A stretch of 64,000 bases of DNA from Candidatus Multivorans thiocomprendens (GTDB lineage Bacteria; Acidobacteriota; Thermoanaerobaculia; Multivoradales; Multivoraceae). A model generated the notes under the pieces. That model was not told where the DNA came from and did not search any database. It worked only from the letters and a program-made list of their open reading frames with translations. A program made the translations under genes and the position numbers. The stretch is from assembly GCA_027493375.1 (NCBI GenBank), contig JAPVWO010000250.1, forward strand, positions 1,743 through 65,742, written 5' to 3'. Within the stretch, counting starts at the first letter, position 1. Each line of letters starts with the position of its first letter. Positions 22,896-42,154 of this stretch are shown here, piece by piece.

Positions 22896-22897
22896 GG

Positions 22898-22916: not shown

Positions 22917-22995
22917 GACGTTCTCCCGGCCGCCTGCGGCGGCGGCCGGCGGGGACGCCGGCGCACCCAGTGGGCCCGTTCCCGCTGTCCCGGCC

Positions 22996-23652
22996 CTACT
23001 CCGCCAGGACCTGCCGGGTGCGGTGGAAGACCTCGTCCAGGCCCACCGCGTCCGAGGCGTAGTAGCCGCGGACTCCGCCGTCGCGGTCGACGAGGGCCAG
23101 CCGTGCCGCGTGGGCCACATCGACCAGGCCGCCGGCGAGGTCCAGCCGCTCGCCCATGGGCAGGGCGAAACCGTCGACAACCAGCGAACGCACGTCCGGC
23201 TCGGCGCCGGTGACGAGGCTCCAGTGCTCCAGGTCCAGGCTCCGGCTCCGCGCGTAATCACGGAGCCGCTCCGGCGTGTCGTGCGCCGGATCGACCGTGA
23301 AGCTCACCAGCGTCACTTCCTCCACGCCCTCCTCGCGGTAGCGGCGCTCCAGTTGACGCAGCGAGGCAGTGAGGCGTGGACAGACCGTGGCGCAACGCGT
23401 GAACAGGAAGGACGCGACGTAGACCCCGCCAGCCAGATCGTCGCTGCCGAACGACCCGCCGTTCTGGTCGACCAGCCGCCACTGCGGCAACTGGCGCAGG
23501 ACCGGCGGCGGGTCGGGTTCGAACCGGAGCAGCGGCCGGAGCGCCGGGATCAGGACGAAGCCTGCCAGCGCCGCGAGAAACCAGGGGTTCAGCAAGCTCC
23601 GGCGAGGCTCCCGCGCGCCTCCATCGAGGCCGGAACGAGGGTCCTCGGACAT
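22996..23652 (-). CDS. SCO1/SenC family copper chaperone (thioredoxin fold)
   Basis: N-terminal TM segment. Motif FLFTRCATVCP (C-x3-C) is present, with a downstream His (VAHAARLALVDRDG). It is divergent from the ActA operon. Confidence 0.85.
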   Translation of the reverse strand: MSEDPRSGLDGGAREPRRSLLNPWFLAALAGFVLIPALRPLLRFEPDPPPVLRQLPQWRLVDQNGGSFGSDDLAGGVYVASFLFTRCATVCPRLTASLRQLERRYREEGVEEVTLVSFTVDPAHDTPERLRDYARSRSLDLEHWSLVTGAEPDVRSLVVDGFALPMGERLDLAGGLVDVAHAARLALVDRDGGVRGYYASDAVGLDEVFHRTRQVLAE

Positions 23653-23668: not shown

Positions 23669-23697
23669 GGCGCCGGGCTTTGACCGCCTCGATAGCA
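23669..23697 (+). promoter_or_regulatory. Sigma-70-like promoter candidate for the ActA operon
   Basis: TTGACC (23669-23674), a 17-nt spacer, then TACACT (23692-23697). It lies in the 74-nt divergent region between SCO and actA. Confidence 0.4.
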
Positions 23698-23762
23698 CGC
23701 TGTACACTCCGCGCGATCTCGGAGGGGTGCAGGGCTCATACCCTGCTTCGGGGTACGGAGTT

Positions 23763-24410
23763 TTGGCACAGATCTTCCCCAAGTGGACTCTCAAGGTTCC
23801 GCTCTACGTGGCGCTTGCCCTGCCGGTGGGCGGCGGTGCCGTAGCGGGCGGCATCTGGTACTTCTTCTCGCCCGAGTACACCGATGTCGGCTACCGGCCG
23901 GCGCAGCCCGTGCCCTACAGCCACGCGCTCCACGTCGGCGAACTCGGCCTCGACTGCCGTTACTGCCACGCCTCGGTCGAGGAGTCGGCGGTGTCCAACG
24001 TCCCCCCGACCCAGGTCTGCATGAACTGCCACCACGTCGCCGTCCGGGACAGCGAGCTGCTGGAACCGATTCGCAAGAGCATCGAACAGGGTCGTCCGAT
24101 GCGCTGGGTGCGCATCCACAACCTTCCCGACTACGCGTTCTTCGACCACAGCGTTCATGTCGGGGCCGGTGTCGGCTGCCGGACCTGCCACGGTCCGGTC
24201 CACGAGATGGAGGTCGTGTCCCAGGTGGAGCCTCTGAGCATGAGTTGGTGCCTCGACTGTCACCGCGACCCGGGTCCGCACCTGCGGCCGCTCGAAGCGG
24301 TGACCGACATGGAGTGGATTCCGACCGGAGACCACGAGGCCTTCGCCGAGCTGGCGATCGCGGAACGGGCGCTGGCGCCTCCTGAAGACTGCACGGCGTG
24401 CCACCGATGA
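23763..24410 (+). CDS. actA: Alternative complex III subunit ActA, membrane-anchored pentaheme cytochrome c
   Basis: Five CxxCH sites are present: CRYCH, CMNCH, CRTCH, CLDCH and CTACH. The N-terminus ...AQIFPKWTLKVPLYV matches the usual ActA/NrfH-like start, so I prefer the TTG at 23763. The GTG at 23727 is the longest alternative. Confidence 0.85.
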   Translation: MAQIFPKWTLKVPLYVALALPVGGGAVAGGIWYFFSPEYTDVGYRPAQPVPYSHALHVGELGLDCRYCHASVEESAVSNVPPTQVCMNCHHVAVRDSELLEPIRKSIEQGRPMRWVRIHNLPDYAFFDHSVHVGAGVGCRTCHGPVHEMEVVSQVEPLSMSWCLDCHRDPGPHLRPLEAVTDMEWIPTGDHEAFAELAIAERALAPPEDCTACHR

Positions 24411-27400
24411 GCGCGGGCAACGGCAAGCGGCCGGACAGAACCTACTGGCGCAGCCTGGAACAACTCCAGGGAGTTTCCGGGCCGGTCGCCCTCCGGCAGA
24501 TCGACGGCCAGGAGCGTGAGTTCCCGGAGGGCGCGTCGGAAGCGCCGCCCGAACTGCTGCGGGACGGCGTCAGCCGCCGCGGCGTGCTCGCCATGCTGGG
24601 TGGTACGGCCTCGCTCGCCGGCCTGACCGGCTGCGACATCATCCGCCGCCCGGTCGAACACATCGTTCCCTACGTCGACGCCCCGGAGGGCATGGTCCCC
24701 GGCGTTCCGCTGGCCTACGCCACGACGATGCCGTTCGGCAGCCGCGCCCTCGGTCTGCTGGTGGAGAGCCACGAGGGTCGGCCGACGAAGGTCGAAGGCA
24801 ACGAACTCCATCCGTTCTCGGAAGGCGCATCGAGCGTGTGGGCCCAGTCCTCGATGCTCGACCTGTACGACCCCGACCGGTCGAAGTCCGTACGGTTCGG
24901 CGACGAGGCGTCCTCCTGGGACGACTTCGTGGCCGCCTGGAACGAAGGCGACCTCGGCCCCGCGGCCGACGGCACCGGCTTCGCCATCCTCGCCGAGCCG
25001 TCCTCGTCGCCGACCCTGGTCCGGCTCAAGGAAGCGCTCCTCGACCGCTATCCGCAGGCCCGATGGGTGACCTGGGAGCCGGTGAGCGAAGAGAACGCCG
25101 ACCAGGGGACGGCGTCCGCCGCCGGTGAGCACGTCCACGCGCTCTACCATGTGGACCGCGCGCAGGTCCTGCTGACCCTGGACTCCGACTTCCTCAGCAC
25201 CGAGGGCGACAGCGTCCGCAACCTGCGCGGCTACGGCCGCGGCCGGCGCGTGAACGAGGCCGGCGGCGGCACCATGCTGCGCCACTATGCCGTCGACGGC
25301 GTCCACTCGGTGACCGCGGCCGGCGCGGACCACCGCCTACGAGTGCAGAGCGGCCGCGTCGCGGCCCTCGTCGCCCGCCTTGGCAGCGCGCTCGCGGGTC
25401 ACGGCCTGGAACTGCCGGTGGGTGCCGGCGCGCCGGCCGCCGACATCGACGAGGCCTGGGTCGAAGCGCTGGCGCAGGACCTGATCGCACACCGGGGCGC
25501 CGGGCTGATCGTCGCCGGCAACCGCCAGCCGGCGGCCGTCCACGCCGCCGTCTACGTCCTGAACTCGGCGCTCGGCAACGCGGGCTCGACGGTGACGTAC
25601 CACCGGACGCCCGACAGCGGCAGTTCGAGCGACGCGGACCTTGCCGCCCTGTCGTCGGCGATCCGGGAAGGCGCGGTCGACCGTCTGCTGATCCTGGGCG
25701 CCAACCCGGCCTACAGCGCTCCCGCCGACCTCGACTTCCCGGCCGCCCTCGAGAGCCTGGGCGAAACGGCCGCGGTTATCCACGCCGGCGCCTACCGGGA
25801 CGAAACGAGCCGCTTCGCGCGCTGGCACCTGCCGCTCGCCCACTATCTGGAGAGCTGGGGCGACGCCCGGGCCACCGACGGCACGGCGAGCGTCGTGCAG
25901 CCCCTGATCGAGCCGCTCCACGGCGCGAAGAGCCTGGTCGAGGTGCTCGCCCTGGCCGCGACGGGCGAGTCCCGCGACGGCCGCGATCTGGTCCGCGAGA
26001 CCTGGTCCGGGATCCTCGGCCTGCCGCTCGAGGAGGACGCCGACGAGGCGGCCGCCGCCGGGACCGCGCCGGAAGCCGAGACAGACGCCGAAGCCGCCGC
26101 TGACGGCGAGGTCGAAGAGACCGAAGCGGAAGAGGCCGTGCCGGTCGACCCGATGTCGCTGCCGTTCCCCGTCGCGCTCTCCGGGTTCGAAGTCGCCTGG
26201 CGCAAGGTGTTGCACGACGGCCTGCTGGACGGCAGCGCCGCGGCGGCGGCCGATCTCCCCGCCATCGCGCCCGAGGATGGCGCCGCCGCGGTTCGCGCCG
26301 CCGGCGACGCCGCCCAACCGATCGCCGCGGGCGACGAGATGGAGATCGTCTTCCGGTGTTCCCCGGCGGTCCACGACGGTCGCTTCGCCAACAACGGCTG
26401 GCTTCAGGAGCTGCCGGACGCGATGACCAAGCTGACCTGGGACAACGCCGCCCTGATCAGCCCCGCCACCGCCGCCGCGCTGGGTCTCGAGAACGAGGAC
26501 CTCGTCACGGTGGCCTCCGGCGGCCGGCAACTCGAGCTTCCCGTCTGGCAGGTGCCGGGACAGGCGGACAACACGGTGACGATCGACCTCGGCTACGGCC
26601 GCGACTTCACTGGCCGGATCGCGAGCGCCGCCAACCTCGAGGGCCACGGTCCGGGGCGCAACGCCTATCTGCTGCGCACCTCGGAGGCGCCCGACCTCGC
26701 CCGCGGCGCGCTGAGCCCGACCGGCGGCGCCTACCCGCTGGCGCAGACCCAGGACCACCACTCGATGGAGGGCCGCCCGATCGTCCGCGAGGCCGATCTC
26801 GACTACTTCGAAGCACATCCCGACTTCGCGACGGCCCACGGCGAGAAGCCGCACGAGAACTCGATGTGGGACGAGTGGACCTACAAGGACTCGCCGCAGT
26901 GGGGCATGACGATCGACCTGAACGCCTGCGTCGGCTGCAACGCCTGCATGATCGCCTGCCAGAGCGAGAACAACGTGCCGATCGTCGGCAAGGAGCAGGT
27001 GATGGAGGGCCGGGAGATGCACTGGCTCCGCATCGACCGCTACTTCTCCGACGAGGGAGAATCCCGCGGCATGCTCCGGGACCTCGTCCACGACCTCCCC
27101 AACGAGCCGCGGACGAGCTTCCAGCCGGTGCCCTGCATGCAGTGCGAGAACGCGCCCTGCGAGCAGGTCTGCCCGGTCGCGGCCACCGTGCACGACAGCG
27201 AAGGGCTGAACGCGATGGTCTACAACCGTTGCATCGGCACCCGCTACTGCTCGAACAACTGCCCCTACAAGGTACGGCGCTTCAACTACTTCAACTTCAC
27301 CAAGGACACTCCCGAGGTGATGAAGCTGGGCAAGAACCCGGACGTCACGATCCGTTCCCGGGGCGTCATGGAGAAGTGCACGTACTGCGTCCAGCGAATC

Positions 27401-27691
27401 AGCCGGGCGAAGGTCGACGCCAAGCAGGACGGCCGGCCCCTGGCCGACGGCGACGTGGTCACCGCCTGCCAGCAGGCCTGTCCGGCCGAGGCGATCCGCT
27501 TCGGCGACATCACGGATGCCGCCAGCGGCGTTTCCCAGGCGAAGGCCAGTCCCCGCAACTACAAGTTGCTCGACGACCTGCACACGAAGCCCCGGACGAC
27601 CTACCTCGCGAAGATCCGCCACCCGAACCGCGACATCACGCCGGCGCCGCCACCCGCCGAAGACCACGGCGGCGGCGAGGACGCGCACTGA
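24407..27691 (+). CDS. actB: Alternative complex III subunit ActB (Mo-free molybdopterin-oxidoreductase-like B1 fused to 4Fe-4S B2), Tat signal
   Basis: ATG at 24407 overlaps the actA stop (ATGA). YWRSLEQL, Tat motif SRRGVLAMLGG and HEGRPTKVEGNELHP...LDLYDPDRS are present. There is no N-terminal Cys cluster. The C-terminal ferredoxin shows CVGCNACMIACQSENN, CMQCENAPCEQVCP, CIGTRYCSNNCPYK and CTYC...ACQQACP. Confidence 0.9.
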   Translation: MSAGNGKRPDRTYWRSLEQLQGVSGPVALRQIDGQEREFPEGASEAPPELLRDGVSRRGVLAMLGGTASLAGLTGCDIIRRPVEHIVPYVDAPEGMVPGVPLAYATTMPFGSRALGLLVESHEGRPTKVEGNELHPFSEGASSVWAQSSMLDLYDPDRSKSVRFGDEASSWDDFVAAWNEGDLGPAADGTGFAILAEPSSSPTLVRLKEALLDRYPQARWVTWEPVSEENADQGTASAAGEHVHALYHVDRAQVLLTLDSDFLSTEGDSVRNLRGYGRGRRVNEAGGGTMLRHYAVDGVHSVTAAGADHRLRVQSGRVAALVARLGSALAGHGLELPVGAGAPAADIDEAWVEALAQDLIAHRGAGLIVAGNRQPAAVHAAVYVLNSALGNAGSTVTYHRTPDSGSSSDADLAALSSAIREGAVDRLLILGANPAYSAPADLDFPAALESLGETAAVIHAGAYRDETSRFARWHLPLAHYLESWGDARATDGTASVVQPLIEPLHGAKSLVEVLALAATGESRDGRDLVRETWSGILGLPLEEDADEAAAAGTAPEAETDAEAAADGEVEETEAEEAVPVDPMSLPFPVALSGFEVAWRKVLHDGLLDGSAAAAADLPAIAPEDGAAAVRAAGDAAQPIAAGDEMEIVFRCSPAVHDGRFANNGWLQELPDAMTKLTWDNAALISPATAAALGLENEDLVTVASGGRQLELPVWQVPGQADNTVTIDLGYGRDFTGRIASAANLEGHGPGRNAYLLRTSEAPDLARGALSPTGGAYPLAQTQDHHSMEGRPIVREADLDYFEAHPDFATAHGEKPHENSMWDEWTYKDSPQWGMTIDLNACVGCNACMIACQSENNVPIVGKEQVMEGREMHWLRIDRYFSDEGESRGMLRDLVHDLPNEPRTSFQPVPCMQCENAPCEQVCPVAATVHDSEGLNAMVYNRCIGTRYCSNNCPYKVRRFNYFNFTKDTPEVMKLGKNPDVTIRSRGVMEKCTYCVQRISRAKVDAKQDGRPLADGDVVTACQQACPAEAIRFGDITDAASGVSQAKASPRNYKLLDDLHTKPRTTYLAKIRHPNRDITPAPPPAEDHGGGEDAH

Positions 27692-28380
27692 TGCGGCTTG
27701 CCTGGAACTGGCCGCCCACTGGGTGCGCGGGTCTTCTGACCCGCTGCCGCCGCAGGCGGCCAGGAGAACGCGCCGGCCGTCAGGCCGGCTCCGTCCGGGC
27801 GGCCAGATCCATGCAAGCTCTGGCAGCCGTCCTGCTGCTGCTCGGCTGCCGGGGCATGCCGTCGCCCTTTCCGCCGATCCACCCCAACCCGAACATGGAC
27901 TACCAGGAGCGCTACGACCCGCAGGAGGCGAGCGCCTTCTTCTACGACGGCATGGCGATGCGCCAGCCGGTCGCGGGCACGGTGGCGCGCGGGCAGCTCG
28001 ACGTCGATCACCGCCTTCTGTTCGGGCGCGACGACGAGGGTTACTTCCTCGAAACCTCGCCTCTGGCGGTCACCGACGAGGTGCTGGCCCGGGGCGAGAA
28101 CCGGTACGAGATCTACTGCCAGCCCTGCCACGACGAGCGCGGCACCGGTCAGGGCATCCTGTTCGAGCGCGCCAGCACCCCCACCGCCTCCCTCCACGAT
28201 GAACGCATCGCCGCCTACAACGATGGCCGCCTGTACGACGTGATCACGAACGGTGTCGGGTTGATGGCGGGCTACCGCTATCCGCTGACGGTCGACGACC
28301 GCTGGGCGGTCGTCGCCTACGTCCGTGAGCTGCAGCAGGAACGCCGAACGATGCAGGCGGAGCGGGAAGCACGCCAGTAG
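27691..28380 (+). CDS. actE: ActE-like monoheme cytochrome c lipoprotein
   Basis: Lipobox LLLLGC. A single CQPCH site is present. The C-terminal MAGYRYPLTVDDRWAVVAYVRELQ is typical of ACIII ActE. The start is uncertain: the ATG at 27691 overlaps the actB stop (TGATG), and the ATG at 27811 is the alternative. Confidence 0.7.
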   Translation: MRLAWNWPPTGCAGLLTRCRRRRPGERAGRQAGSVRAARSMQALAAVLLLLGCRGMPSPFPPIHPNPNMDYQERYDPQEASAFFYDGMAMRQPVAGTVARGQLDVDHRLLFGRDDEGYFLETSPLAVTDEVLARGENRYEIYCQPCHDERGTGQGILFERASTPTASLHDERIAAYNDGRLYDVITNGVGLMAGYRYPLTVDDRWAVVAYVRELQQERRTMQAEREARQ

Positions 28381-28394: not shown

Positions 28395-30326
28395 ATGACC
28401 AGAAACAGGATCCTCTTCGGCATCGGCGTTCTCGCCTTCGTGTCCGTGATCGTCACGGTGCGTCTGGGCGGTTTCCTGGTGGACAACGAGTACCGCCAGC
28501 CGGACCGGCAGGTCGCCGCCCAGGAAGAGCTGGGCGAGGCCGAACTCGTGCCACGCCAGCAGGGCATTGCCGACGAGCAGGCCGCGGACGAAGCCGAAGC
28601 GCGGGCGAGGCCCTACGAGGAGGCCGAGTACCGCACGGTGCCGTTCGTCGGCAGCCGGGTGACCGTGTGGGTGCTGGCGCAGCTCCATCTGCTGTTCGCG
28701 GCGTTCGTCCTCGCCGTGCCGCTGTTCGCCTTCATCATCGAGTTCGTCGGCTACGTCAAGAAGGAGGAGCGGTACAACAAGCTGGCGTACGAGTTCACGA
28801 AGCTCCTCTCCGTCTCGTTCTCGATGACCGCCACCTTCGGGGCGTTCCTGACCTTCGCGTTGATCATCCTCTACCCGAAGTTCACGAACTACCTGATGCA
28901 CATCTTCTCGCCGACGTTCCTGCCCTACGTCCTGCTTTTCTTCCTGGAAGCGCTCTTCCTCTACAGCTACTACTACGGCTGGGGCAAGTTCGGGCCGAAA
29001 ATGCACCTGTTCCTGGGCTTCATGCTGAACATCGTGGGCACCGCGATCATGTTCATCGCGAACGCCTGGCTGACCTTCATGATGTCGCCCGGCAAGCGCG
29101 ACGACATCGATGGCGACGGCGTCCCGGACTTCGTCTCCGCGGTCTCGGAGAGCGGCGCACTCCTCAGCCTCCGAGACGCCTTCTTCAACTTCACCTGGAT
29201 GCCGATCAACATCCACCGGATCATCGCGAACGTCGCCTTCGGCGGCTCGATCGCCGCCGCCTACGCCGCCTTCCGCTACCTGCAGGCGAAGTCCGACGAG
29301 GAGAGGGCCCACTTCGACTGGATGGGCTACGTCGGCAACTTCGTCGCCATCATCGCCTTCCTGCCCCTGCCGTTCGCGGGCTACTACCTGGCCGCCGAGA
29401 TCTACGCCTTCAGCCAGACCCTGGGCATCCAGATGATGGGCGGCACGTTCTCCTGGCTGTTCGTCCTCCAGGCGGCCCTCATCGGCAACCTGTTCCTGGG
29501 CGCCAACTACTACCTCTGGCTGGGGATGGGCCGCATGGAGGGCGGCGTCCACTTCCAGAAGTTCATCAAGTGGCTGCTGATCGCGATCGCCCTCTGCTTC
29601 GCCGTCTGGGCAACGCCGCGCTACGCCATCTCTTCGGTCTCCGAGATCGCCGCGATGGGGGGCAGCAGCCACCCGCAGCTTTCCTACCTGGGGCAGATGT
29701 CGGCCAAGAACACGGCGGTCAACATCCTGATCCTCTCGACCTACATGAGCTTCCTGCTCTACCGGCGGACCGGCAGGCAATCGATCCATCCGCACAGGCA
29801 GCTCCTCACCCGCGCACAGGCGATCGTCTTCTCCTCCGCGGCGGCGCTGGTCATCTTCTACGGCGTCTACGGCTACTTCGTCGACTCGGCGACGCGCATC
29901 CGGTTCGCGATTCCGCAGGTCTACTCCGTGCTCGCGGCCCTGGTGGTGATCACGGTGATCGACCTGCCCCTGTACCGCAACGCCGCGCAGTCGGGCGAAA
30001 CCAAATGGGGCAGAATCCCGGCCGTCTCGCAGTACGCCCTCATCTTCATTGCCCTCAGCTTCACCTGGCTGATGGGGCTGATGGGCTACGTCCGCTCCGG
30101 CCTGCGCCAGGAATGGCATGTGTACGGCGTGATCCTCGACACCTCCCCGGACGCCTACACGCCCAGCCTGGGCTTCGCGACGCAGGTCGTCTCCGTCACG
30201 GTTCTCATCTTCTTCGGCCTGATCGGCGTCGTCTTCTGGCTCAGCAGCCTGAGCGGCAAGAAGGACTACGCGCCGGGCGCTGCCGCTGAGGACGGCGGCC
30301 GGCTCGAAGGGGGCCAGACGGCATGA
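28395..30326 (+). CDS. Cytochrome bd-like membrane protein (CydA superfamily, no Q-loop)
   Basis: By eye it aligns to E. coli CydA at four segments. AQLHLLFAAFVLAVP aligns with the H19 region. FFLEALFLYSYYYGWGKFG...IANAWLTFMMSPG aligns with FFLESTFVGLFFFGWDRLG...VANGWMQNP. INIHRIIANVAFGG aligns with the H186 region. GYVRSGLRQEWHVYG aligns with EYGRQPW. It has 643 aa and many TM segments, with only a short loop where the quinol-binding Q-loop would be. Confidence 0.75.
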   Translation: MTRNRILFGIGVLAFVSVIVTVRLGGFLVDNEYRQPDRQVAAQEELGEAELVPRQQGIADEQAADEAEARARPYEEAEYRTVPFVGSRVTVWVLAQLHLLFAAFVLAVPLFAFIIEFVGYVKKEERYNKLAYEFTKLLSVSFSMTATFGAFLTFALIILYPKFTNYLMHIFSPTFLPYVLLFFLEALFLYSYYYGWGKFGPKMHLFLGFMLNIVGTAIMFIANAWLTFMMSPGKRDDIDGDGVPDFVSAVSESGALLSLRDAFFNFTWMPINIHRIIANVAFGGSIAAAYAAFRYLQAKSDEERAHFDWMGYVGNFVAIIAFLPLPFAGYYLAAEIYAFSQTLGIQMMGGTFSWLFVLQAALIGNLFLGANYYLWLGMGRMEGGVHFQKFIKWLLIAIALCFAVWATPRYAISSVSEIAAMGGSSHPQLSYLGQMSAKNTAVNILILSTYMSFLLYRRTGRQSIHPHRQLLTRAQAIVFSSAAALVIFYGVYGYFVDSATRIRFAIPQVYSVLAALVVITVIDLPLYRNAAQSGETKWGRIPAVSQYALIFIALSFTWLMGLMGYVRSGLRQEWHVYGVILDTSPDAYTPSLGFATQVVSVTVLIFFGLIGVVFWLSSLSGKKDYAPGAAAEDGGRLEGGQTA

Positions 30327-30808
30327 AGCTCTCCGTTCCCATGCCGCTGCGGCTGGTCCTTCTCGTGCTGGGCACCACGGCCTTCTACATGTACCTGGGC
30401 CAGATCGTGCCGCAGAAGGAATCCCACCCACCGCCGCCGGTCCTGATCAACGCCGAGATGACGACGGAGGACCTGGTGGCGGTCGGCGCGGAGCTGGCGA
30501 GCGGCAAGGGCCAGTGCCTCGTCGGGTGTCACACGGTCGGCCAGAGCGGCCCCTTGCGCTATCCGGACCTGGACGGCATCGGCGGCCGCGCCGCCACCCA
30601 GGTGGACGGCCTGTCCGACCTGGAGTATCTCGCCCAGTCGCTCTACGAGCCGGCCGTGTTCATCGTCCCAGGGTTTGCCGACGGAATGCAGGCCATCAAC
30701 CAGCCGCCGATCAACCTCTCCGACGACGAGATCAAGGCGGTGATCGCCTGGCTGCAGAGCCTGGGCGGTACGCCGAACGTGACCCTGGACACCGATCTCG
30801 GCTATTGA
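30323..30808 (+). CDS. Membrane-anchored monoheme class I cytochrome c
   Basis: ATG overlaps the bd-like gene stop (ATGA). N-terminal TM segment. A single CLVGCH site and a distal Met (ADGMQAIN) are present. The C-terminus reads IAWLQSLGG. Confidence 0.7.
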   Translation: MKLSVPMPLRLVLLVLGTTAFYMYLGQIVPQKESHPPPPVLINAEMTTEDLVAVGAELASGKGQCLVGCHTVGQSGPLRYPDLDGIGGRAATQVDGLSDLEYLAQSLYEPAVFIVPGFADGMQAINQPPINLSDDEIKAVIAWLQSLGGTPNVTLDTDLGY

Positions 30809-30927: not shown

Positions 30928-31746
30928 ATGTTGGGACTCAACCTTCCCGTTGTCATCGTCCTGGCCGCGGTCGGCGGCGTACTCGCCTGGCGCCGGGCCA
31001 ACACTCTCACCTGGCTGCTCTACACCTGGGTCGCCCTGTGGGCCTTCTTCAAGTACGGCTTCGCCGTGCCGATCCCGCGGTCCGTGGCGACGATCTACCT
31101 CGGAATCACCGGGCTCGCGCTGGTCTGCTTCGCCTCCTCGAGCCGGGAACGGTTGTCGGAGACGGTCCAGCCGATCGCGCGGCTCATTCTCGAACCCCGC
31201 TACCGCCTGGCCCTCGCCGGGCTTCTCGTCGCCCTGCCGGCACTCGCCGCCTACAACGTCTACGCCGATCTGAACGTGCCGCTGGAGGCGCCCGGTTTCG
31301 GCCGGGAGGTCCATCCGCCGCCGCCCACGGAGATGACCGTCCACGACGAGACGGTCGACATGGCGACGGCCGAGAACCCGTACCTGCACTACAACCACGA
31401 CGATCCGGAGCTCTACGGAGAGCACCTGGAGAACGGGCGGCGGGTCTACTACGAGAACTGCTTCTGGTGCCACGGCGACGGCATGGGCGGAGACGGCATG
31501 TTCGCCCACGGCCTGAATCCCGTGCCCAGCAACTTCAACGATGTCGGCACGTTGCCGATCCTCCAGTCCTCCTTCGTCCACTGGCGGATTGCCAAGGGTG
31601 CTCCGGGCCTTCCCGGCGCGGGGACCCCCTGGGACAGCATGATGCCGGCCTGGGAGAAGTTCCTCACCACCGAGGAGATGTGGGACGTCAACCTCTTCAT
31701 CTACGACTTCAACGGCTACGAGCCGCGCGCCCTGGGGCAGCACTGA
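30928..31746 (+). CDS. Polytopic membrane protein with a C-terminal monoheme cytochrome c domain
   Basis: About four N-terminal TM segments are followed by GRRVYYENCFWCHGDGMGGDG (CxxCH) and ...MMPAWEKFLTTEEMWDVNLFIY. Confidence 0.7.
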   Translation: MLGLNLPVVIVLAAVGGVLAWRRANTLTWLLYTWVALWAFFKYGFAVPIPRSVATIYLGITGLALVCFASSSRERLSETVQPIARLILEPRYRLALAGLLVALPALAAYNVYADLNVPLEAPGFGREVHPPPPTEMTVHDETVDMATAENPYLHYNHDDPELYGEHLENGRRVYYENCFWCHGDGMGGDGMFAHGLNPVPSNFNDVGTLPILQSSFVHWRIAKGAPGLPGAGTPWDSMMPAWEKFLTTEEMWDVNLFIYDFNGYEPRALGQH

Positions 31747-33548
31747 TGACCGTGCACGCCAGACGACGCGCTCGGGCCATGGCCACGTTGGCCGCTGCCG
31801 TCCTGCTCGTGGCCCTGCCGGCCGGCGGCCAGGTCGACCTCGGCACCGAGGAGCAGCGCGCGGCCGGAAAGATCGTCTACGACAAGTACTGCGGCCAGTG
31901 CCACGGCGACACCGGCGACGGCAACGGCTACGCCACGCCGCGCGTCAAGCCGAAGCCGCGCGACTTCACGACGGGCACCTACAAGTTCCGCACCACGCCG
32001 AACGGCATGCTGCCCACGGACGACGACCTGCGCCGCGTGATCGAGATCGGCGCCCCCTACACCTCGATGCCGGGCTGGCCGAACCTGACGAGCGCCGAGA
32101 TCCAGAACGTCATCTACTACATCAAGTCCTTCTCGCCCGACTTCGAGAACCCCGACCGCTACGGCGAGCCGATCGAGATTCCCCGGCCGCTCGAATCGAC
32201 CGAGGAGTCGATCGCCCGCGGCCGCGTGGTCTACGAGGAGCAGGGCTGCGCCGCCTGCCACGGCGAGGTCGGGCGGGGCGACGGCCCATCGGCGCCGACC
32301 CTGGTCAATGACAAGGGCGACCCGATCAAGGTCGCCGACCTCACCCAGCGCTGGACCTACCGCGGCGGTGCGACGAAGGAAGACATCTACCGCACCTTCT
32401 CCACCGGCCTGAACGGCACGCCCATGCCGTCCTACGCCGACTCGCTCGAGATCGAGGATCGCCAGCACCTGGTGAACTACGTCTACTCGCTGGGCGACGG
32501 AGACGATCCGAACTACGGCACGCTGATCACGGCGGTCTACTCGGAAGAGCCGATCGACCTGGAGGACGGAGAAACGCTCGACGCGCTGTTCGAGACCGCG
32601 CCGATGACCCGCTTCCCCCTCGTCGGCCAGATCAGCGAACCGGGACGCAACTTCTTCCCCTCCGTCACCTCGATCGAGGCCCAGGCGGTCTACAACCGCG
32701 ACGAGATCGCGTTCCGGGTCCGCTGGCACGACCTCCGCGCCGACACCTCGGGCCGCAACAGCCCGAGCCTGGAAGTGCCGATGTGGGACGAGGACAACGG
32801 CATCGGCGCAGAGGCGGCCGACGACGGCGGCGACGATTTCTTCGGGGATGCCGGAGGGGACGATTTCTTTGGCGAGTTCGGCGGCGAGGAAGCGCCCGCG
32901 GAGGACGACTTCTTCGGCGATAGCGGCGGCGACGACTTCTTCGGTGACGGCGGCGACGACTTCTTCGGCGCCGCCGACGCAGGGCCCCCCGGCGCCGAGT
33001 TCTCCGACGCCGTGGCGCTGCAGTTCCCGGCCTCGCTGGCGCCCGAGGAGACTCCCGAACTCAAGCCGTACTTCCTCTACGGCGACTCCCAGAACCCGGT
33101 CGACCTCTGGTTCGTCAACCTGACGTACGGTGTCGCCGACACATTCCGGGGCCGCGGCAGTGAGTCGATCGAGCCCACCGAGGCCGACATCGTCGAAGCC
33201 GTGACTTCCTACGACCAGGGCGAATGGACCGTGACGTACAAGCGGCGGCGCTCGTCGCGCGCCGGCGTCAGCTTCGCCGAGCAGCAGTACACGCCGGTCG
33301 CCTTCAGCGTCTGGGACGGCTTCAACCGCGAACGCGGAAACAAGCGGGCGCTGTCGTCCTGGTTCTACGTCTACACCGAACCGAGCGTGCAGCCGGCGAC
33401 GACGTTCCCCATCGTCCGGGCAGCCGTCATCGTGCTCGTGCTCGAACTGCTGGTCGTCTTCCTGGTTCGCCGCCGGGCCCGCCGGCAGGCGGCCGGCGAA
33501 GAGGCCGCGGGCGGGACCCTCGCCGCAACCGAGGCGCCCGCCGTCTGA
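31746..33548 (+). CDS. Diheme cytochrome c fused to an ethylbenzene-dehydrogenase-gamma-like (EB_dh) domain, with C-terminal TM anchor
   Basis: Start trimmed to the ATG at 31746 (1-nt overlap with the upstream stop). There is a signal peptide and two heme sites, CGQCH and CAACH. The later AQAVYNRDEIAFRVRWHD...AVALQFP...PVAFSVWDGFNRERGNKRALSSW resembles the EB_dh / DMSO-reductase gamma-subunit fold. The terminal TM segment is AAVIVLVLELLVVFLV. Confidence 0.7.
   Translation: MTVHARRRARAMATLAAAVLLVALPAGGQVDLGTEEQRAAGKIVYDKYCGQCHGDTGDGNGYATPRVKPKPRDFTTGTYKFRTTPNGMLPTDDDLRRVIEIGAPYTSMPGWPNLTSAEIQNVIYYIKSFSPDFENPDRYGEPIEIPRPLESTEESIARGRVVYEEQGCAACHGEVGRGDGPSAPTLVNDKGDPIKVADLTQRWTYRGGATKEDIYRTFSTGLNGTPMPSYADSLEIEDRQHLVNYVYSLGDGDDPNYGTLITAVYSEEPIDLEDGETLDALFETAPMTRFPLVGQISEPGRNFFPSVTSIEAQAVYNRDEIAFRVRWHDLRADTSGRNSPSLEVPMWDEDNGIGAEAADDGGDDFFGDAGGDDFFGEFGGEEAPAEDDFFGDSGGDDFFGDGGDDFFGAADAGPPGAEFSDAVALQFPASLAPEETPELKPYFLYGDSQNPVDLWFVNLTYGVADTFRGRGSESIEPTEADIVEAVTSYDQGEWTVTYKRRRSSRAGVSFAEQQYTPVAFSVWDGFNRERGNKRALSSWFYVYTEPSVQPATTFPIVRAAVIVLVLELLVVFLVRRRARRQAAGEEAAGGTLAATEAPAV
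32820..32969 (+). repeat. In-frame acidic-aromatic tandem repeat (five DDFFG units) inside the EB_dh-like domain
   Basis: The translation is DDGGDDFFGDAGGDDFFGEFGGEEAPAEDDFFGDSGGDDFFGDGGDDFFG. The DNA units ggcggcgacgacttcttcgg recur nearly identically. Confidence 0.9.
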
Positions 33549-33624: not shown

Positions 33625-35784
33625 ATGTACAAGACGATCTACGTCCCCGTCGACAACTCGGACTACTCGAACCAGGCGATCGCCTCCGCGGTCGAGCTGG
33701 GCCGCGAGTTCGACTCCACGATGGTCGGCTGCCACGTCTACGCGGCCAGCATGCACGACTACCGCTTCAAGCAGATGGAGTACACCCTGCCGGACGAGTA
33801 CCTCGAGGAGACGGAGCTCGACCGCCAGCGGAAGATCCACGACTCGCTCATCACGATGGGCCTGGAGCTCATCTCCGAGAGCTACCTCGAGCCGATGAAG
33901 GCGGTCTGCGACGACGCCGGCCTCGAGTTCGAGCCGAAGATGATGGACGGCAAGCACCACGTCGAGATCGTCCGCGACATCCGCGAATCGGGCTACGACC
34001 TGACGGTGCTCGGCGTGATGGGGATCGGCCGCGTCCGCGACACCCAGATCGGCTCCGTCTGCGAACGCGTGGCCCGCACCGCCGACAGGGACGTCCTGGT
34101 CATCAAGCGGCTGCCCGCGGGGGCGACCGCGACGAACGGAAACGGCAACGGGCACCATACCGAGGCCGACGGCCGCGACACGATCCTGGTCGGCGTCGAC
34201 GGCTCGCCCCAGTCCTTCGGAGCGCTGATGACGGCGATCGACCTGGCGAAGACCCTCGGCAAGAAGGTCGAGGCGATCTCGGTCTACGACCCCTACCTGC
34301 ATTACTCCGTGTTCAAGGGCGTGGTCAACGTGCTGACCGAGCGCGCGGCGAAGATCTTCCGCTTCGAGGAGCAGAACCAGCTCCACGAGGAGATCATCGA
34401 CACCGGTCTGGCGCAGATCTACCAGTCCCACCTGGATGTCGCCGAGACGATGGCGACCGAGGTCGGCGTGGAGTTGACGAAGACGCTCCTCGACGGCAAG
34501 GCGTTCCAGAAGGTCCTCGACCATGCCAGGAAGATCGATCCCTGGATGCTGGTCATCGGCCGGGTCGGCGTCCACAGTGACGAGAGCGAGACCGGCCTCG
34601 GCAGCAACGCCGAGAACCTGCTCCGCGCCTGCCCCTGCGACCTGCTCCTGACCACTCGCCTGGAGCACCCGGAACTCGACGTCAAGGCCGAGGAGAGCAT
34701 CCGCTGGACCCCCGAAGCCGAGGAGCGTTTCAAGCGGGTGCCCGAGCAGGTGCGCGGCATCGCCCGCACCGCCCTCTACAGGCTGGCCGTCGAGCAGGGA
34801 CACAGCGTGATCTCGAGCAACGTGCTCGACGAGGCGATGGACCGCTACATGCCGAAGTACACCGCCCGCGAGACGGAGGCCCTGGCCGAGAAGCTCGCCC
34901 TGCAGCTCGCGCGCAGCCGGCCGACCTTCATCTGCAGGAAGTGCGGCGTCACCTCGGCCGAACCCGATCCGGTGCGCTGCGGCGTCTGCGGCAGCGACTC
35001 CTTCGAGCAGATCACCGAAGAGATGCTGGAACGGATCGCCGAAATGGAAGGCGGTCTCGAGGTCGAGACCACCTACGACGGCCGCAAGCTGAAGTGGACC
35101 GCCGACGCCCGCCTGGCCCTCAAGACGATCGAGGACGCCTACCGCCGCCGCCGCGCCAAGGCCCGGATCGAGAAGAAGGCGCGGATGAGCAAGCTGCCGA
35201 CCGTCACCTTCGAGTTCGCCCGCGTGATGATCGAGGACGAGACCGGCGAGCCGGTGACGATCGAGGCCCGTGAGCAGGCGACCGAGGCCAACGGCAACGG
35301 CGCCGCCGAGACGTCGGCCGACGAACGCAAGCTGATCGCCCGCGACGACGACCGCGTCCCGCTGCTCTCGAACCACGAGTGGACCGCCGAAGCCGTCGAG
35401 CGCATCCTCCGGGTTCCCGCCGGCTTCATGCGCGACCGCACCCAGGAGCGCGTCGAACTGGTGGCCCGCGAAAAGCACGTCTCCCGGATCGGCATCAAGA
35501 CGGTCGAGGAGGGCATCGAGCTCGGCCGCGAGCTGATGGAGCAGATGATCGCGGCCTACGAGCTAGACAAGAAGGACGAGTCGCCCGCCGGGGACGTCGC
35601 CGAGGCCGAAGCAAAGGCCGCGACCGCCGCCGGCAGGTGCCCCTTCTCCGCTCTCGCCGAAGCCGGCGCCAGCGACGCCCAGGTCGAGGCGGCCAAGGAC
35701 GCGAAGGCCGGGAGCTACCTGAACGAGGTCGGCCTGATGTCGGCCCTGGACGAGAAGCGCAAGGCCGATGAGTCCCGCAACTGA
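33625..35784 (+). CDS. Double universal-stress-protein (USP) domains fused to a zinc ribbon and three PCP_red-like (BchB C-terminal-like) domains
   Basis: USP1 is IYVPVDNSDYS...LTVLGVMG...VCERVARTADRDVLVIK. USP2 is ILVGVDGSPQS...LVIGRVG...GSNAENLLRACPCDLLL. The zinc ribbon is CRKCG...CGVCG. The PCP_red-like units are RWTPEAEERFKRVPEQVRGIARTALYRLAVEQGHSVISSNVLDEA, KWTADARLALKTIEDAY... and EWTAEAVERILRVPAGFMRDRTQERVELVAREK. Confidence 0.8.
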   Translation: MYKTIYVPVDNSDYSNQAIASAVELGREFDSTMVGCHVYAASMHDYRFKQMEYTLPDEYLEETELDRQRKIHDSLITMGLELISESYLEPMKAVCDDAGLEFEPKMMDGKHHVEIVRDIRESGYDLTVLGVMGIGRVRDTQIGSVCERVARTADRDVLVIKRLPAGATATNGNGNGHHTEADGRDTILVGVDGSPQSFGALMTAIDLAKTLGKKVEAISVYDPYLHYSVFKGVVNVLTERAAKIFRFEEQNQLHEEIIDTGLAQIYQSHLDVAETMATEVGVELTKTLLDGKAFQKVLDHARKIDPWMLVIGRVGVHSDESETGLGSNAENLLRACPCDLLLTTRLEHPELDVKAEESIRWTPEAEERFKRVPEQVRGIARTALYRLAVEQGHSVISSNVLDEAMDRYMPKYTARETEALAEKLALQLARSRPTFICRKCGVTSAEPDPVRCGVCGSDSFEQITEEMLERIAEMEGGLEVETTYDGRKLKWTADARLALKTIEDAYRRRRAKARIEKKARMSKLPTVTFEFARVMIEDETGEPVTIEAREQATEANGNGAAETSADERKLIARDDDRVPLLSNHEWTAEAVERILRVPAGFMRDRTQERVELVAREKHVSRIGIKTVEEGIELGRELMEQMIAAYELDKKDESPAGDVAEAEAKAATAAGRCPFSALAEAGASDAQVEAAKDAKAGSYLNEVGLMSALDEKRKADESRN

Positions 35785-35922
35785 GTCACGTGGTTTCGCG
35801 CTTCCGACACGACTCACGCCTGTGAACGAGCAGAGCACGTCCGCGAAGAGGAGATCGGCTCCACACTGCGGGCGGACCAGGAGCCGGCCTTTCTCTATCT
35901 CGCTCTCCTGGCGTGGGCCGTA

Positions 35923-36702: not shown

Positions 36703-36704
36703 CT

Positions 36705-39396: not shown

Positions 39397-40275
39397 ATGA
39401 AGAGCTACTTCGACCTGATCGATGACGGCGGTTCCGACATCGCCGGCCAGGTCGGCCGGCAGCGGGAACGCATCGCCGAGGCCCTGACCGGCGTCGAACA
39501 CATCGTCGCCATCGGCTCCGGCAAGGGAGGCGTCGGCAAGAGCACCCTGACCATGCAACTGGCCCTGGCCATGGAGCGCCGCGGCCGCCGCTGCGCCGTG
39601 CTCGACGCCGATCTGAACGGCCCTTGCCAGGCGCGCCTCGCCGGCCTCGAGAACGCGGCCCTGCTTCCGGGCGGCCGCGGCATGGCGCTGCCGCGCACCG
39701 CGACCGGACTCGGCGTCGTATCGATGGGTTCCGCGGTGCCGGAATCGGAGGACCTGGACTTCGCCAGCGTTGCCCGCGGCGACTCCCATGTCTGGCGCGC
39801 CACCCGCGAGTTCAACCTGTTCCAACAACTGCTCGGTCTGGTCGACTGGGGACGTCTCGACGTTCTCCTGGTCGACCTGCCGCCCGGCGCCGAGCGCACG
39901 CTCCAGTACGCCGAGGTCCTGGGACCGGGGGCCCGTTTCGTCCTCGTCTCGATTCCGACCGCCCTGGCGCGAGGCGTCGTGGCGCGCTCGGCCGCCGCTC
40001 TGCGGCGAACCCGGAACGTGACGCTCGGCGTGATCGAGAACATGAGCGGCTACTACTGCGAAGGCTGCGACGATGTCCGGCCTCTGTTCGAGGGCTCGGA
40101 CGACACGGCCCCCGAGCTTGGACTCCCCGTACTCGCTTCGATACCGTTCGATCCGCGGCTGGCCGCGGCCTCCGACGCCGGCGACCCGGAGTTGCCGCGG
40201 GGGCCTGCCGTCCGCGCGATCGAGACCGCCGCCGACTCCATCCTGAGCGGCCTCGCCGAGCGGCGGGCCGGCTGA
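39397..40275 (+). CDS. Mrp/NBP35 (ApbC-like) P-loop ATPase, Fe-S cluster carrier family
   Basis: Deviant Walker A IGSGKGGVGKST, VLDADLNGP, LLVDLPPG and the CxxC pair NMSGYYCEGCDD are typical of the family. Confidence 0.85.
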   Translation: MKSYFDLIDDGGSDIAGQVGRQRERIAEALTGVEHIVAIGSGKGGVGKSTLTMQLALAMERRGRRCAVLDADLNGPCQARLAGLENAALLPGGRGMALPRTATGLGVVSMGSAVPESEDLDFASVARGDSHVWRATREFNLFQQLLGLVDWGRLDVLLVDLPPGAERTLQYAEVLGPGARFVLVSIPTALARGVVARSAAALRRTRNVTLGVIENMSGYYCEGCDDVRPLFEGSDDTAPELGLPVLASIPFDPRLAAASDAGDPELPRGPAVRAIETAADSILSGLAERRAG

Positions 40276-40287
40276 TCCGGAGACCCG

Positions 40288-40767
40288 ATGAAGTTCCTCT
40301 GCGTACCCTGCGACGAGCAGATGAAGCTCAAGCACGCGATCGGCCCCGAGGGCGGTTCGGTCGCCCTGGTCTACGCCTGTCCCGCCTGCTCGGCCGAGAT
40401 GGCGATGATGACGAACCCGCACGAAACCCAGGTCGTCGGCTCGCTCGGAGTGAAGATCGGCGCCGCGGAAGATCCCGAGGCGGCCGCGGCCGCCTCGAAA
40501 TGCCCGTTCACCGGCATGCTGGCCGACATGGGCGTTCCGGTGACCGGAACGCGCGCCGCGGAGAACGCCAACCCCGTCGCGAGCGGCAATGGCGGCCCCG
40601 GAGGCATTCCCTGGACGGCCGAGGCCCGCGAGCGGCTCGCCAACATCCCGGACATCGTCCGCGCCGCGGCTGTCGCGGGGATCGAGAAGTTCGCCGAGGA
40701 CCACGGCTACGAAGAAGTCAACGCGGCCGTCCTGGAACGCGCCCGCTCGTTCTTCGGGATCGCCTGA
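40288..40767 (+). CDS. Zinc-ribbon protein with a C-terminal PCP_red-like domain
   Basis: The N-terminus has CVPCD...CPACS. The C-terminus IPWTAEARERLANIPDIVRAAAVAGIEKFAEDHGYEEVNAAVLERA fits the BchB C-terminal pattern W..eAe..l..iP.fvR. Confidence 0.75.
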   Translation: MKFLCVPCDEQMKLKHAIGPEGGSVALVYACPACSAEMAMMTNPHETQVVGSLGVKIGAAEDPEAAAAASKCPFTGMLADMGVPVTGTRAAENANPVASGNGGPGGIPWTAEARERLANIPDIVRAAAVAGIEKFAEDHGYEEVNAAVLERARSFFGIA

Positions 40768-40783: not shown

Positions 40784-42154
40784 ATGACGGTGTCACCCCT
40801 GGAGCGGCAGGCGAGCGTGAACCCGACCGCCTTCGCGCGGCCGTACGTCATCTCCTGGAACCTGACCTACCGCTGCAACCTGGCCTGCGAGCACTGCTAC
40901 CTCGACGCCGGCGGCAAGCCTCTGGTCCAGACCGCGAACTTCGCCGACCGCTCGGAGCTCTCGACCGACCAGTGCCGCAAGGTGATCGACGACATCTGCG
41001 AGTTCGCCCCCGAAGCCCTGGTCATCCTCACCGGCGGCGAGCCGCTGCTGCGCCGAGACATCCTGGAGATCGTGCGCTACGCGGCAGAGCGCGACTTGTG
41101 GGTCGTCGTCGGCAGCAACGGCGTGCGCATCACCGAGAACCTGGCCCGGATTCTGGCCGGCGAGGGTGTCCGCGGTCTCGCCCTGTCGCTCGACGCCCTC
41201 GACGCCGAGGTCCACGACGGCTTCCGGCGGGTTCGCGGCGCCTGGCGGAACACGGTCGACGGCGCCGGGCACCTCGCCACGGCAGGGTTGCCCTTCATCA
41301 TCCAGACCACGGCCGGCGCCCACAACCGGGGTCAGCTCGAGGAGATCGCCGAGTTCGCCTACAGCGAACTCAAGGCACGGGTCTGGAACCTGTACTTCCT
41401 GGTTCCGACCGGCCGCGGCCAGTTCGTCTCGGACCTGTCGCCGTCCGACTACGACGAGGTGCTGGCCGCCCTCACGTCCATCCAGCGGAACTACCGCGGG
41501 CGCATGGTCGTCAACGCGAAGTGCGCGCCCCACTACGTCCGCCAACTACTCGCCGGAGACCAGGACTCGCCCTTCCTCAAGGCGTACGACGGCGGCGCCG
41601 GCGGCTGCCCGGCCGGAACCCACTACATGGGGATCCGACCCAACGGCGACGTCACGCCCTGCCCCTACCTGCCGGTGTTCGGCGGCAACCTGAAACGGTC
41701 GACGCTCTCGGATCTCTGGAACGACTCCGACCTCTTCCAGTCGATCCGGCGCCGCAACGATCTCGGCGGCCGCTGCGGCTCCTGCGAGTTGTCGACGGTC
41801 TGCGGCGGCTGCCGGGCCCGGGCCTTCGGGATGACGGGCGACCTGATGGCGGAGGATCCGCTCTGCACCCACGAGCCCGGCACCTTCACTGCCGACCGGC
41901 TCCAGGCGTTCGGCGACCGCACCGGGCTGGCCTCTCTCGCCCGCTACGGCGAAGACAGCTCGACCAGCATCGCCTGGGAACCCGAAGCCGAAGCCCGCAT
42001 GAAGCGGGTGCCGGCCTTCGTCCGCGGCATGGTCGTGCGCTCGGTCGAGTCCCACTGCCGCAAGAACGGGATTTCGACCGTGACCGTCGACGAACTCGAG
42101 TCGATCCGCGCCCGGATGCCGACGCCAAAGGTCTTCGGCAGCCGCCCTTCCTGA
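40784..42154 (+). CDS. Radical SAM/SPASM enzyme, NirJ/AhbC/AhbD-like, with a C-terminal PCP_red-like domain
   Basis: Start trimmed to the ATG at 40784. VISWNLTYRCNLACEHCY is the CxxxCxxC radical SAM cluster motif. LTGGEPLLRRD is present. The SPASM cysteines are CPAGTHYMGIRPNGDVTPCPY and GGRCGSCELSTVCGGCRARA. The tail reads IAWEPEAEARMKRVPAFVRGMVVRSVESHCRKNGISTVTVDELE. Confidence 0.85.
   Translation: MTVSPLERQASVNPTAFARPYVISWNLTYRCNLACEHCYLDAGGKPLVQTANFADRSELSTDQCRKVIDDICEFAPEALVILTGGEPLLRRDILEIVRYAAERDLWVVVGSNGVRITENLARILAGEGVRGLALSLDALDAEVHDGFRRVRGAWRNTVDGAGHLATAGLPFIIQTTAGAHNRGQLEEIAEFAYSELKARVWNLYFLVPTGRGQFVSDLSPSDYDEVLAALTSIQRNYRGRMVVNAKCAPHYVRQLLAGDQDSPFLKAYDGGAGGCPAGTHYMGIRPNGDVTPCPYLPVFGGNLKRSTLSDLWNDSDLFQSIRRRNDLGGRCGSCELSTVCGGCRARAFGMTGDLMAEDPLCTHEPGTFTADRLQAFGDRTGLASLARYGEDSSTSIAWEPEAEARMKRVPAFVRGMVVRSVESHCRKNGISTVTVDELESIRARMPTPKVFGSRPS

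Follow-up and report, generated by a model that had tools for sequence, protein, structure and literature searches.

An OR-N2-like cytochrome bd-like protein encoded with ActA, ActB, ActE and c-type cytochromes in an acidobacterial operon

The closest described relatives of the protein considered here are the "bd-like oxidases" of Nitrospira, Nitrospina and Kuenenia, which were reported by Lücker et al. (2013) to have 14 transmembrane (TM) helices, to keep the N-terminal haem ligands of cytochrome bd, and to have membrane helices for the Q-loop and none of the quinol-binding residues. The family was named OR-N by Murali, Gennis & Hemp (2021), who defined within it OR-N2, a group with 14 helices, often without a second CydA-like gene, that has the pattern H/Y/E/Y/Y/H/H/S/W at E. 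coli CydA positions 19/99/107/114/116/126/186/445/"441" (the Trp being listed as W569) and operons that carry several cytochromes c and an EbdC homologue; OR-N1 has Gly at the E107 position. A c-type-haem donor has already been inferred for the OR-N family, and its members were previously recorded in Acidobacteriota. In this study we analyzed a stretch of 64,000 nucleotides from Candidatus Multivorans thiocomprendens (contig JAPVWO010000250.1, positions 1,743 to 65,742; hereafter the window), in which the gene at 28395-30326 on the plus strand encodes a 643-amino-acid (aa) membrane protein, referred to below as the bd-like protein. Judged from its sequence and its neighbours, this protein is close to certain to be OR-N2-like ("Nitrospira NIDE0901-like"), i.e., it is a further member of the OR-N2/NIDE0901-type family already in the literature.

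The evidence for this assignment lies in the residues of the protein, the genes around it and its relatives. All nine OR-N2 signature positions are occupied by the expected residues (H98, Y178, E185, Y192, Y194, H204, H274, S568 and W574), as are those of M435 and N439, and the protein is set apart from OR-N1 because it has Glu, not Gly, at the E107 position. Several cytochromes c and an EbdC (EB_dh) homologue are encoded in the operon, as in other OR-N2 operons, and no CydB was found in the window. Over 579 aa the protein shares 41% identity with a homologue from Nitrospira sp. Kam-Ns4a, downstream of whose gene lie a cytochrome c gene and a dihaem-c/EB_dh gene; a second paralogue from that organism shares 39%. 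Nitrospira proteins are likewise retrieved by a profile built from distant homologues. The closest genomic match to the gene is in a Thermoanaerobaculia metagenome-assembled genome (99% identity). The family is large and already named, counting ~7000 proteins at E <= 1e-5 from a single search, 1374 clusters (50% identity) and no fewer than 589 genomic loci, and the impression of an oddity conveyed by an earlier note on this DNA, made from the sequence alone, was not sustained.

The coding frame of the bd-like gene is genuine, with a GC content at third codon positions (GC3) of 0.93 and a frame plot that switches cleanly at both borders, and a Shine-Dalgarno-like motif, GGGGA, lies ahead of its ATG. 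The label in the source database is "cytochrome ubiquinol oxidase subunit I", and the protein does match the Pfam family PF01654 (Cyt_bd_oxida_I) above threshold (E 7.6e-25). That match is confined to aa 87-335, aligned with positions 2-236 of the 418-position profile, so that the homology to CydA covers the first half only, and the NCBIfam equivalogs for bd-I/bd-II subunit I scored ~20 bits versus cut-offs of 968-1025. The gene and the parts of its product were as follows:

28395..30326, plus strand: OR-N2-type cytochrome bd-like subunit I, 643 aa, 14 TM helices (PF01654, AlphaFold2 fold, homologues).
28395..28658, plus strand: N-terminal extension, made up of TM0 (aa 5-27) followed by a periplasmic arm of 61 aa (aa 28-88) with EYRQPDR and VPRQQG motifs (topology, motif conservation).
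28659..29084, plus strand: four-helix haem module, TM1 to TM4, with H98 (= H19), Y178 (= E99), E185 (= E107), Y192/Y194 and H204 (= H126) (CydA alignments, invariance in 62 homologues, OR-N2 signature table).
29196..29273, plus strand: TM5, which carries H274 (= H186, the first axial b558 ligand) (aligned by profile with Geobacillus CydA; invariant).
29448..29612, plus strand: two inserted TM helices (aa 352-406) at the place of the Q-loop (AlphaFold2 helices 353-380 and 385-406, hydropathy, positive-inside parity).
29613..29762, plus strand: periplasmic loop with H426, and TM9 with M435, K438 and N439, M435 being the candidate second b558 ligand (= M393) (invariant columns, OR-N2 M430/N434).
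29811..29963, plus strand: second inserted helical hairpin (aa 473-523) (AlphaFold2 helices 468-495 and 498-526, topology).
30030..30119, plus strand: TM12 ending in RSGLRQEWH, with S568 at the E445 position and R567, R571, W574 and H575 conserved (alignments, OR-N2 S563/W569).

For comparison with canonical CydA, HMMER alignments to the solved chains 6rko_A, 5doq_A and 9r2g_A were used, and residues are called invariant with reference to 62 homologues of 32-96% identity. In these alignments AQLHLLF pairs with AMYHFLF of CydA, which places H98 at E. coli H19, and FFLEALF...YYYGW pairs with FFLESTF...FFFGW, which places E185 at E107; at the E99 position, in the register of the Geobacillus protein that is without the E. 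coli insertion, stands the non-acidic Y178. A profile of the 62-sequence family pairs PlnvHRilan (H274) with Geobacillus PTKVAHVLAT (H186). The equivalents of H19, E107 and H126, which belong to the O2-reducing di-haem site and the proton channel, are invariant, and the only invariant His residues beyond the haem-related H98, H204 and H274 are H426 and H575. The by-eye alignment of the earlier note was thereby borne out for the H19 and E107 regions, for a non-acidic residue at E99 and for NIHRIIAN as the H186 region, and the ligand and channel residues of the haem scaffold proved to be invariant among the homologues. Its pairing of LRQEWHVYG with GRQPWAIG fared less clearly: HMMER recovered LRQEWHV versus GRQPW in sub-threshold stretches only, and the pairing does fit the published OR-N2 pair S563/W569. 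The proposed loss of the Met ligand of haem b558, by comparison, had to be abandoned. TM9 opens with GQMSAKN, in which M435, K438 and N439 are invariant, and M435/N439 correspond to the OR-N2 residues M430/N434 at the M393 position, with an offset of +5 that is equal to the one from H269 to H274. Based on these columns, the protein probably still offers a His/Met ligand pair to a b558-type haem. Position 409 is Arg in the window protein and His in the Nitrospira-type members. As to copper, for which the earlier note had pointed to possible His clusters in the 3' TM segments, a clear three-His cluster was not found in those helices, and the His positions are not evidence for the metal.

The topology of the bd-like protein, for which hydropathy, the AlphaFold2 helices and the parity of the positive-inside rule are consistent with one another, comprises 14 TM helices, i.e., TM0 and 13 others, and this settles the choice between 14 and 9 that the earlier note had posed. 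The AlphaFold2 model (predicted local distance difference test score, pLDDT, 75; predicted template modelling score, pTM, 0.76) matched only canonical CydA chains in a Foldseek search of the PDB, the top 10 all being CydA at E 2e-9 to 2e-5; no OR-N structure was found in that library, which was current to April 2026. Relative to the 9-TM CydA, the extra helices are one at the N-terminus, two at the place of the Q-loop and one further hairpin. In canonical CydA, TM6 and TM7 are the helices that flank the Q-loop (Murali, Gennis & Hemp 2021). Between the equivalents of TM6 and TM7 in the bd-like protein no hydrophilic periplasmic loop was found, and the Q-loop is absent because two extra TM helices and a 26-aa periplasmic loop fill its position; the quinol site (Q-loop, K252/E257) is likewise absent by this topology test. 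The earlier note was right that the Q-loop is gone and wrong about where: the loop on which it relied, RYLQAKSDEERAH (aa 294-306), is a short positively charged cytoplasmic loop between TM5 and TM6, not between TM6 and TM7. Its wider conclusion, that the protein falls outside the canonical quinol bd oxidases, stood, given the lack of Q-loop, E99, E445 and CydB, and annotation as a canonical CydA (qOR1-3) was ruled out by the tests for those four features together with the number of helices. Membership of the OR-C family was also ruled out, there being zero CxxCH motifs in the 643-aa protein.

The bd-like gene is the fourth in a tightly packed operon and is co-transcribed with the genes of ActA, ActB and ActE, which form the electron-transfer arm of Alternative complex III (ACIII), and with those of two anchored monohaem cytochromes c and a dihaem-c/EbdC-like protein. 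The six genes were identified as follows:

23727..24410, plus strand: actA, a pentahaem cytochrome c of the ACIII electron-transfer arm that begins with a TM helix (five CxxCH; phmmer match to R. marinus 6f0k_A, E 7.8e-67).
24398..27691, plus strand: actB, with molybdopterin-like and four-cluster iron-sulphur (Fe-S) domains and a variant twin-arginine translocation signal (6f0k_B, E 9.4e-266; Fer4; TIGR04519; GC3 0.92).
27811..28380, plus strand: actE-like monohaem cytochrome c lipoprotein (6f0k_E, E 6e-54; CQPCH; LLLGC lipobox; frame plot).
30323..30808, plus strand: membrane-anchored monohaem cytochrome c 1 with CLVGCH (CX3CH) and PF00034, directly 3' of the bd-like gene in 80 of 80 related loci.
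30928..31746, plus strand: membrane-anchored monohaem cytochrome c 2 with one CxxCH, its position kept in related loci.
31746..33548, plus strand: fusion of a dihaem cytochrome c with an EbdC-like (EB_dh) haem b domain, anchored by a TM segment at its C-terminus (PF00034 twice; PF09459; TIGR03477, E 2.9e-21; 6h5l_B, E 7.8e-57).

The spacing of these genes is close throughout. An alternative start of the actE-like gene at 27691 would overlap actB as TGATG, the bd-like gene follows actE after a gap of 14 nucleotides, and the ATGA overlap of its stop with the start of cytochrome c 1, on which the earlier note had remarked, is real. The five neighbouring proteins hold ten haem-c sites (nine CxxCH and one CX3CH), to which is added the EbdC-like haem b domain, and ActB has four Fe-S clusters by homology to 6f0k_B. 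The core of the operon (the bd-like gene, two cytochromes c and the dihaem-c/EB_dh gene, which is itself kept in related loci) is collinear in 80/80 related loci. ActABE stands ahead of that core in most Acidobacteriota loci, and not in Rhodothermales, Bacteroidota, Calditrichia, Fibrobacteria and some Acidobacteriota. By Pfam scans of all large open reading frames and by tblastn, no cydB, second cydA or NrfD/ActC gene was found in the 64-kb window, in agreement with the earlier note as regards a cydB-like partner; ActC, ActD and ActF, the quinol-binding and ion-translocating membrane module of ACIII, are therefore missing from the cluster and from the window as searched. A NrfD-like gene is also absent within ~10 kb in 84 of 85 related loci. 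In a related locus, L033, a divergent canonical actABC operon (1-4498, minus strand) lies next to the actABE-bd-like operon; tblastn with the ActC fragment recovered there gave no match in the window or among the other related loci. A second, divergent actA-actB copy stands beside the actABE-bd-like operon in L033, L041 and L059, followed by a recognisable actC in L033, i.e., the ACIII electron-transfer arm is duplicated in these acidobacterial genomes.

Some further details of these genes were noted. The extra residue in the CX3CH of cytochrome c 1 (aa 65-70) is shared by ten close relatives, the 74 other orthologues having an ordinary CxxCH, and the dihaem-c and EB_dh parts of the last gene are linked by five acidic DDFFG repeats (GGDDFFG...; window 32832-32972) that occur in the window's close clade only. 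A promoter-like site just upstream of actA (23680-23708) is a single match at chance level, as were all matches in the promoter and terminator scans.

The N-terminal extension varies with the presence of ActABE. About 88 residues precede the core, and an extra N-terminal helix is present in every family member examined. The earlier note had described the extension as ~90 residues with one TM segment and an acidic stretch, and this is correct for the window protein, the 61-aa linker of which has 15 D/E versus 7 K/R; strong acidity is, however, specific to the window's clade, the conserved features being Y33 and P53-R54. Where ActABE lies upstream, the linker has 50-61 residues and invariant Y33 and P53-R54 within the motifs EYRxPxR and TPRxQG, whereas without ActABE it is often only 19-27 residues long and the motifs are missing. 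The arm motifs occur in 58 of 60 loci with ActABE directly upstream and in 1 of 13 without (Fisher 6e-11, uncorrected for phylogeny). A comparison of L053, which has ActABE, with L052, which does not, is instructive in that TM0 and the arm are similar and the motifs have decayed in L052, from EYR to ESR and from TPR to TPP. One locus is discordant: in L043 (7783-9579) the arm motifs are kept, yet there is no ActABE within 4.5 kb upstream. In ACIII, the periplasmic loop of the two-helix ActD has conserved residues and contacts ActB, and the ActD hairpin has the same topology as the TM0-arm-TM1 hairpin of the bd-like protein. We infer that the arm may dock ActABE onto the bd-like subunit because its motifs track ActABE and because of the ActD precedent. 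A profile search of the PDB with the arm returned nothing at E <= 10, for ActD or any other solved structure. Fusions of ActE to the bd-like protein were considered as evidence of contact and rejected, as they occur in just 2 of the 63 loci, one being a truncation, and are topologically implausible and likely artefacts.

On balance, and with a confidence only a little better than even, we favour the interpretation that the bd-like enzyme is a cytochrome c-fed terminal oxidase. The protein would bind two or three b-type haems, possibly modified, near the periplasmic face, and would receive its electrons from the periplasmic wire of c-type haems and Fe-S clusters, not from quinol at a Q-loop site. 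Electrons would enter at the b558-type haem (H274/M435) and move on to a di-haem site close to H98; there O2 would be reduced to water with protons delivered through a remodelled channel (Y178, E185 and H204). In this lineage the N-terminal arm, with TM0 and TM1, would dock the ActABE module onto the oxidase. A c-type-haem donor fits the operon because ten haem-c sites and the EbdC-like haem b domain adjoin the gene. The earlier note's proposal of a non-quinol donor of this kind is thus the same as the one published for OR-N and suits the gene context, and here too it has the standing of a hypothesis.

Several points weigh against this interpretation. The b595 ligand position E445 is Ser and E99 is Tyr, which makes the active site unlike that of every characterised bd oxidase. 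A bd-like homologue lies in the NXR cluster of the strictly anaerobic Kuenenia (Lücker et al. 2013), which argues against O2 reduction by every member of the family. No OR-N member has been purified or assayed in the literature, which leaves the haems of the bd-like protein, its electron donor and its reduction of O2 putative. Its placement in OR-N2 as opposed to a sister clade is drawn from its signature residues and its gene neighbourhood and not from a tree with the reference sequences, and the association of the arm motifs with ActABE carries no correction for phylogeny. Finally, the precedent in Chloroflexus for ActABE without ActCDF, and the canonical actABC next door in some relatives, leave docking short of proof.

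The strongest of the competing explanations, which we nevertheless hold to be unlikely, is that the bd-like protein is a quinone-interacting membrane module in place of ActC/D/F, with ActABE seated on it, which would make the complex an ACIII-like quinol:cytochrome c oxidoreductase or a self-contained quinol oxidase with a new quinol site in the inserted helices or in the conserved 407-443 loop. In its favour, actA-actB-actE lie directly 5', a NrfD-like gene was found neither in the 64-kb window nor, for 84/85 related loci, within ~10 kb, the co-varying arm suggests physical contact, and the conserved H274/M435 site corresponds to the quinol-facing haem of the canonical enzymes; Lücker et al. 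(2013) raised an ACIII-like role for bd-like proteins should they bind quinone. Set against this, the canonical quinol residues and the entire Q-loop are absent, no similarity to NrfD/ActC was detected, the O2-site residues are conserved, and in Rhodothermales, Bacteroidota, Calditrichia and some Acidobacteriota the core functions with no ActABE at all.

Somewhat less likely again is that ActABE is merely a neighbour, a swappable arm for an ActCDF encoded elsewhere, in which case a normal ACIII would pass electrons to cytochromes c and on to a separate OR-N2 oxidase. The actABEG genes of the Chloroflexus aurantiacus Cr operon, which has no actCDF, set an example for this, as do the second, divergent actA-actB copies in L033, L041 and L059 with the actC that follows in L033, and oxidase genes are commonly found 3' of act genes in any case. 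Such an arrangement sits poorly with arm motifs that follow the presence of ActABE and with the tight spacing of 14 nucleotides between actE and the bd-like gene.

We consider it improbable that the di-haem site turns over NO, nitrite or peroxide, or that the protein is a mere transmembrane electron conduit. Tyr at E99 and Ser at E445 would suit another chemistry, as would the homologue in the NXR cluster of anaerobic anammox bacteria and the EbdC-like cytochrome b of the operon, which is typical of periplasmic Mo-enzyme systems. However, the cluster has no nitrogen-oxide enzyme and no catalytic Mo subunit (ActB being of the ACIII type, with E 9.4e-266 to 6f0k_B), the equivalents of H19, E107 and H126 are invariant, and the literature treats the family as putative O2 reductases, with expression seen in Nitrospira and Manganitrophus, both aerobic. 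The earlier note's suggestion of a chemistry different from the reduction of O2 gained no positive support. That the protein is an ordinary quinol-oxidising cytochrome bd subunit I is refuted: the database names and a PF01654 match above the Pfam threshold speak for it, and they are outweighed by a match limited to profile positions 2-236 of 418, equivalog scores of ~20 bits where near 1000 is required, the lack of Q-loop, CydB, E99 and E445, and the 14 TM helices.

Downstream of the cytochrome genes lies a set of accessory genes that is shared with related loci:

33625..35784, plus strand: Usp and PCP_red protein, directly after the cytochrome genes, in most related loci with enough downstream DNA.
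38461-39372: GNAT protein, part of the conserved downstream set.
39397..40275, plus strand: MrpORP/ApbC-like Fe-S carrier ATPase, tentative cluster member, in 39 related loci.
40288..40767, plus strand: small PCP_red-domain protein, tentative, in 34 loci.
40784..42154, plus strand: AhbD/NirJ2-like radical SAM/SPASM enzyme with a C-terminal PCP_red domain, tentative (TIGR04545, E 1e-87, below the family cut-off; Pfam domains).

The set (33625-42154) is found in 34-49 of 86 loci, for example L004 and L075, and these include phyla without ActABE; the AhbD/NirJ2-like gene in particular is present in 34 loci, some of which have no ActABE. In the B subunit of protochlorophyllide reductase, PCP_red forms the C-terminal domain and helps to bind the tetrapyrrole. 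Because of the make-up of this gene set and that role of PCP_red, the accessory genes suggest a dedicated tailoring or insertion of haem (tetrapyrrole) for the bd-like oxidase. A literature search found no paper that joins "bd-like", "radical SAM" and "heme". A gene for a protein resembling formylglycine-generating enzyme (FGE) and sulfatase follows the radical SAM gene (window 42183-42839), and two FGE-like genes and a PCP_red gene stand beside both bd-like paralogues of Nitrospira sp. Kam-Ns4a (L086 5396-7303).

We speculate, tentatively and well short of the favoured reading of the enzyme as a cytochrome c-fed oxidase, that in these Acidobacteriota an OR-N2 bd-like protein replaces ActC/ActD/ActF in ACIII, with TM0-arm-TM1 (the arm bearing Y33 and P53-R54) clamping ActB, in a hard-wired respiratory complex of Fe-S clusters, 10 haems c, a haem b and a di-haem site, the haem of which is perhaps tailored by the products of the downstream genes. 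Such an ACIII/bd-like composition was not found described in the literature searched. The actABE-OR-N2 operon with its co-varying docking arm may likewise be a new feature, as may the conserved downstream radical SAM/PCP_red set, no description of either having been found in that literature. These observations matter because Nitrospira, Nitrospina and Manganitrophus, which have key parts in the nitrogen and manganese cycles, are believed to rely mainly on OR-N bd-like enzymes as terminal oxidases. The presence of the same core widely in heterotrophic Acidobacteriota, Rhodothermales and relatives gives a wider choice of study organisms, the linkage to ActABE and the co-varying arm offer a testable idea for the electron route to the enzyme, and the conserved radical SAM/PCP_red genes offer another for a special haem.

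Other genes of the window were noted in passing. Upstream of actA (19754-23652) are genes for a NosD-like parallel beta-helix protein (TIGR03805), an SO2930-family dihaem cytochrome c and a divergent SCO1/SenC copper chaperone, all three being kept in close relatives and SCO1 also in several more distant loci; these upstream genes may relate to the old copper-site proposal for NIDE0901-type proteins. The window also encodes a sulfatase (56461-58404), the FGE-like protein (42183-42839) and a 1200-aa reprolysin/fibronectin-III protein (53000-56602), which are unrelated to the bd-like finding; sulfatase, FGE-like and reprolysin/fibronectin-III traits are common in sponge-associated Acidobacteriota.

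Compared with known systems, the locus is nearest to the OR-N2 proteins of the NIDE0901 type, with which it shares 14 TM helices, CydA-like TM1-5, the lack of Q-loop, quinol residues and CydB, the same signature, and cytochromes c together with an EbdC-like protein. It differs from them in its Acidobacteriota host, in ActA-ActB-ActE upstream, in a longer arm with its own motifs, in Arg 409, and in having no second bd-like paralogue nearby in the window. In gene content, TO_1 of Candidatus Manganitrophus noduliformans (a bd-like protein of clade I, two cytochromes c and a periplasmic CISM-type cytochrome b) corresponds to the four-gene core of the window, but no ActABE is described for TO_1, whereas the window has it. 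With canonical CydA (E. coli bd-I/bd-II, Geobacillus, Mycobacterium) the window protein shares the fold, the first five helices and the equivalents of H19, E107, H126 and H186, and it differs in its 14 versus 9 TM helices, in helices for the Q-loop, in the replacements of E99 by Tyr and E445 by Ser, and in having cytochrome c partners instead of CydB or CydX. Relative to ACIII (ActABCDEF of R. marinus), ActA, ActB and ActE are clear orthologues (E 7.8e-67, 9.4e-266 and 6e-54), and the oxidase gene is 3' of the act genes, as it is in the oxidase-linked forms of ACIII (ACIII-caa3, ACIII with an OR-N5 bd-like protein in Nitrospirales, and TO_3 of Manganitrophus); unlike these, the window cluster is without ActC/ActD/ActF, and the linked bd-like protein is of the OR-N2 type, not OR-N5. 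The actABEG genes of the Cr operon of Chloroflexus aurantiacus are, like those of the window, an arm-only act cluster without actCDF. The Cr arm is thought to share the ActCDF of the Cp operon, whereas the arm encoded in the window stands in one operon with a bd-like oxidase that has an N-terminal extension co-varying with it.

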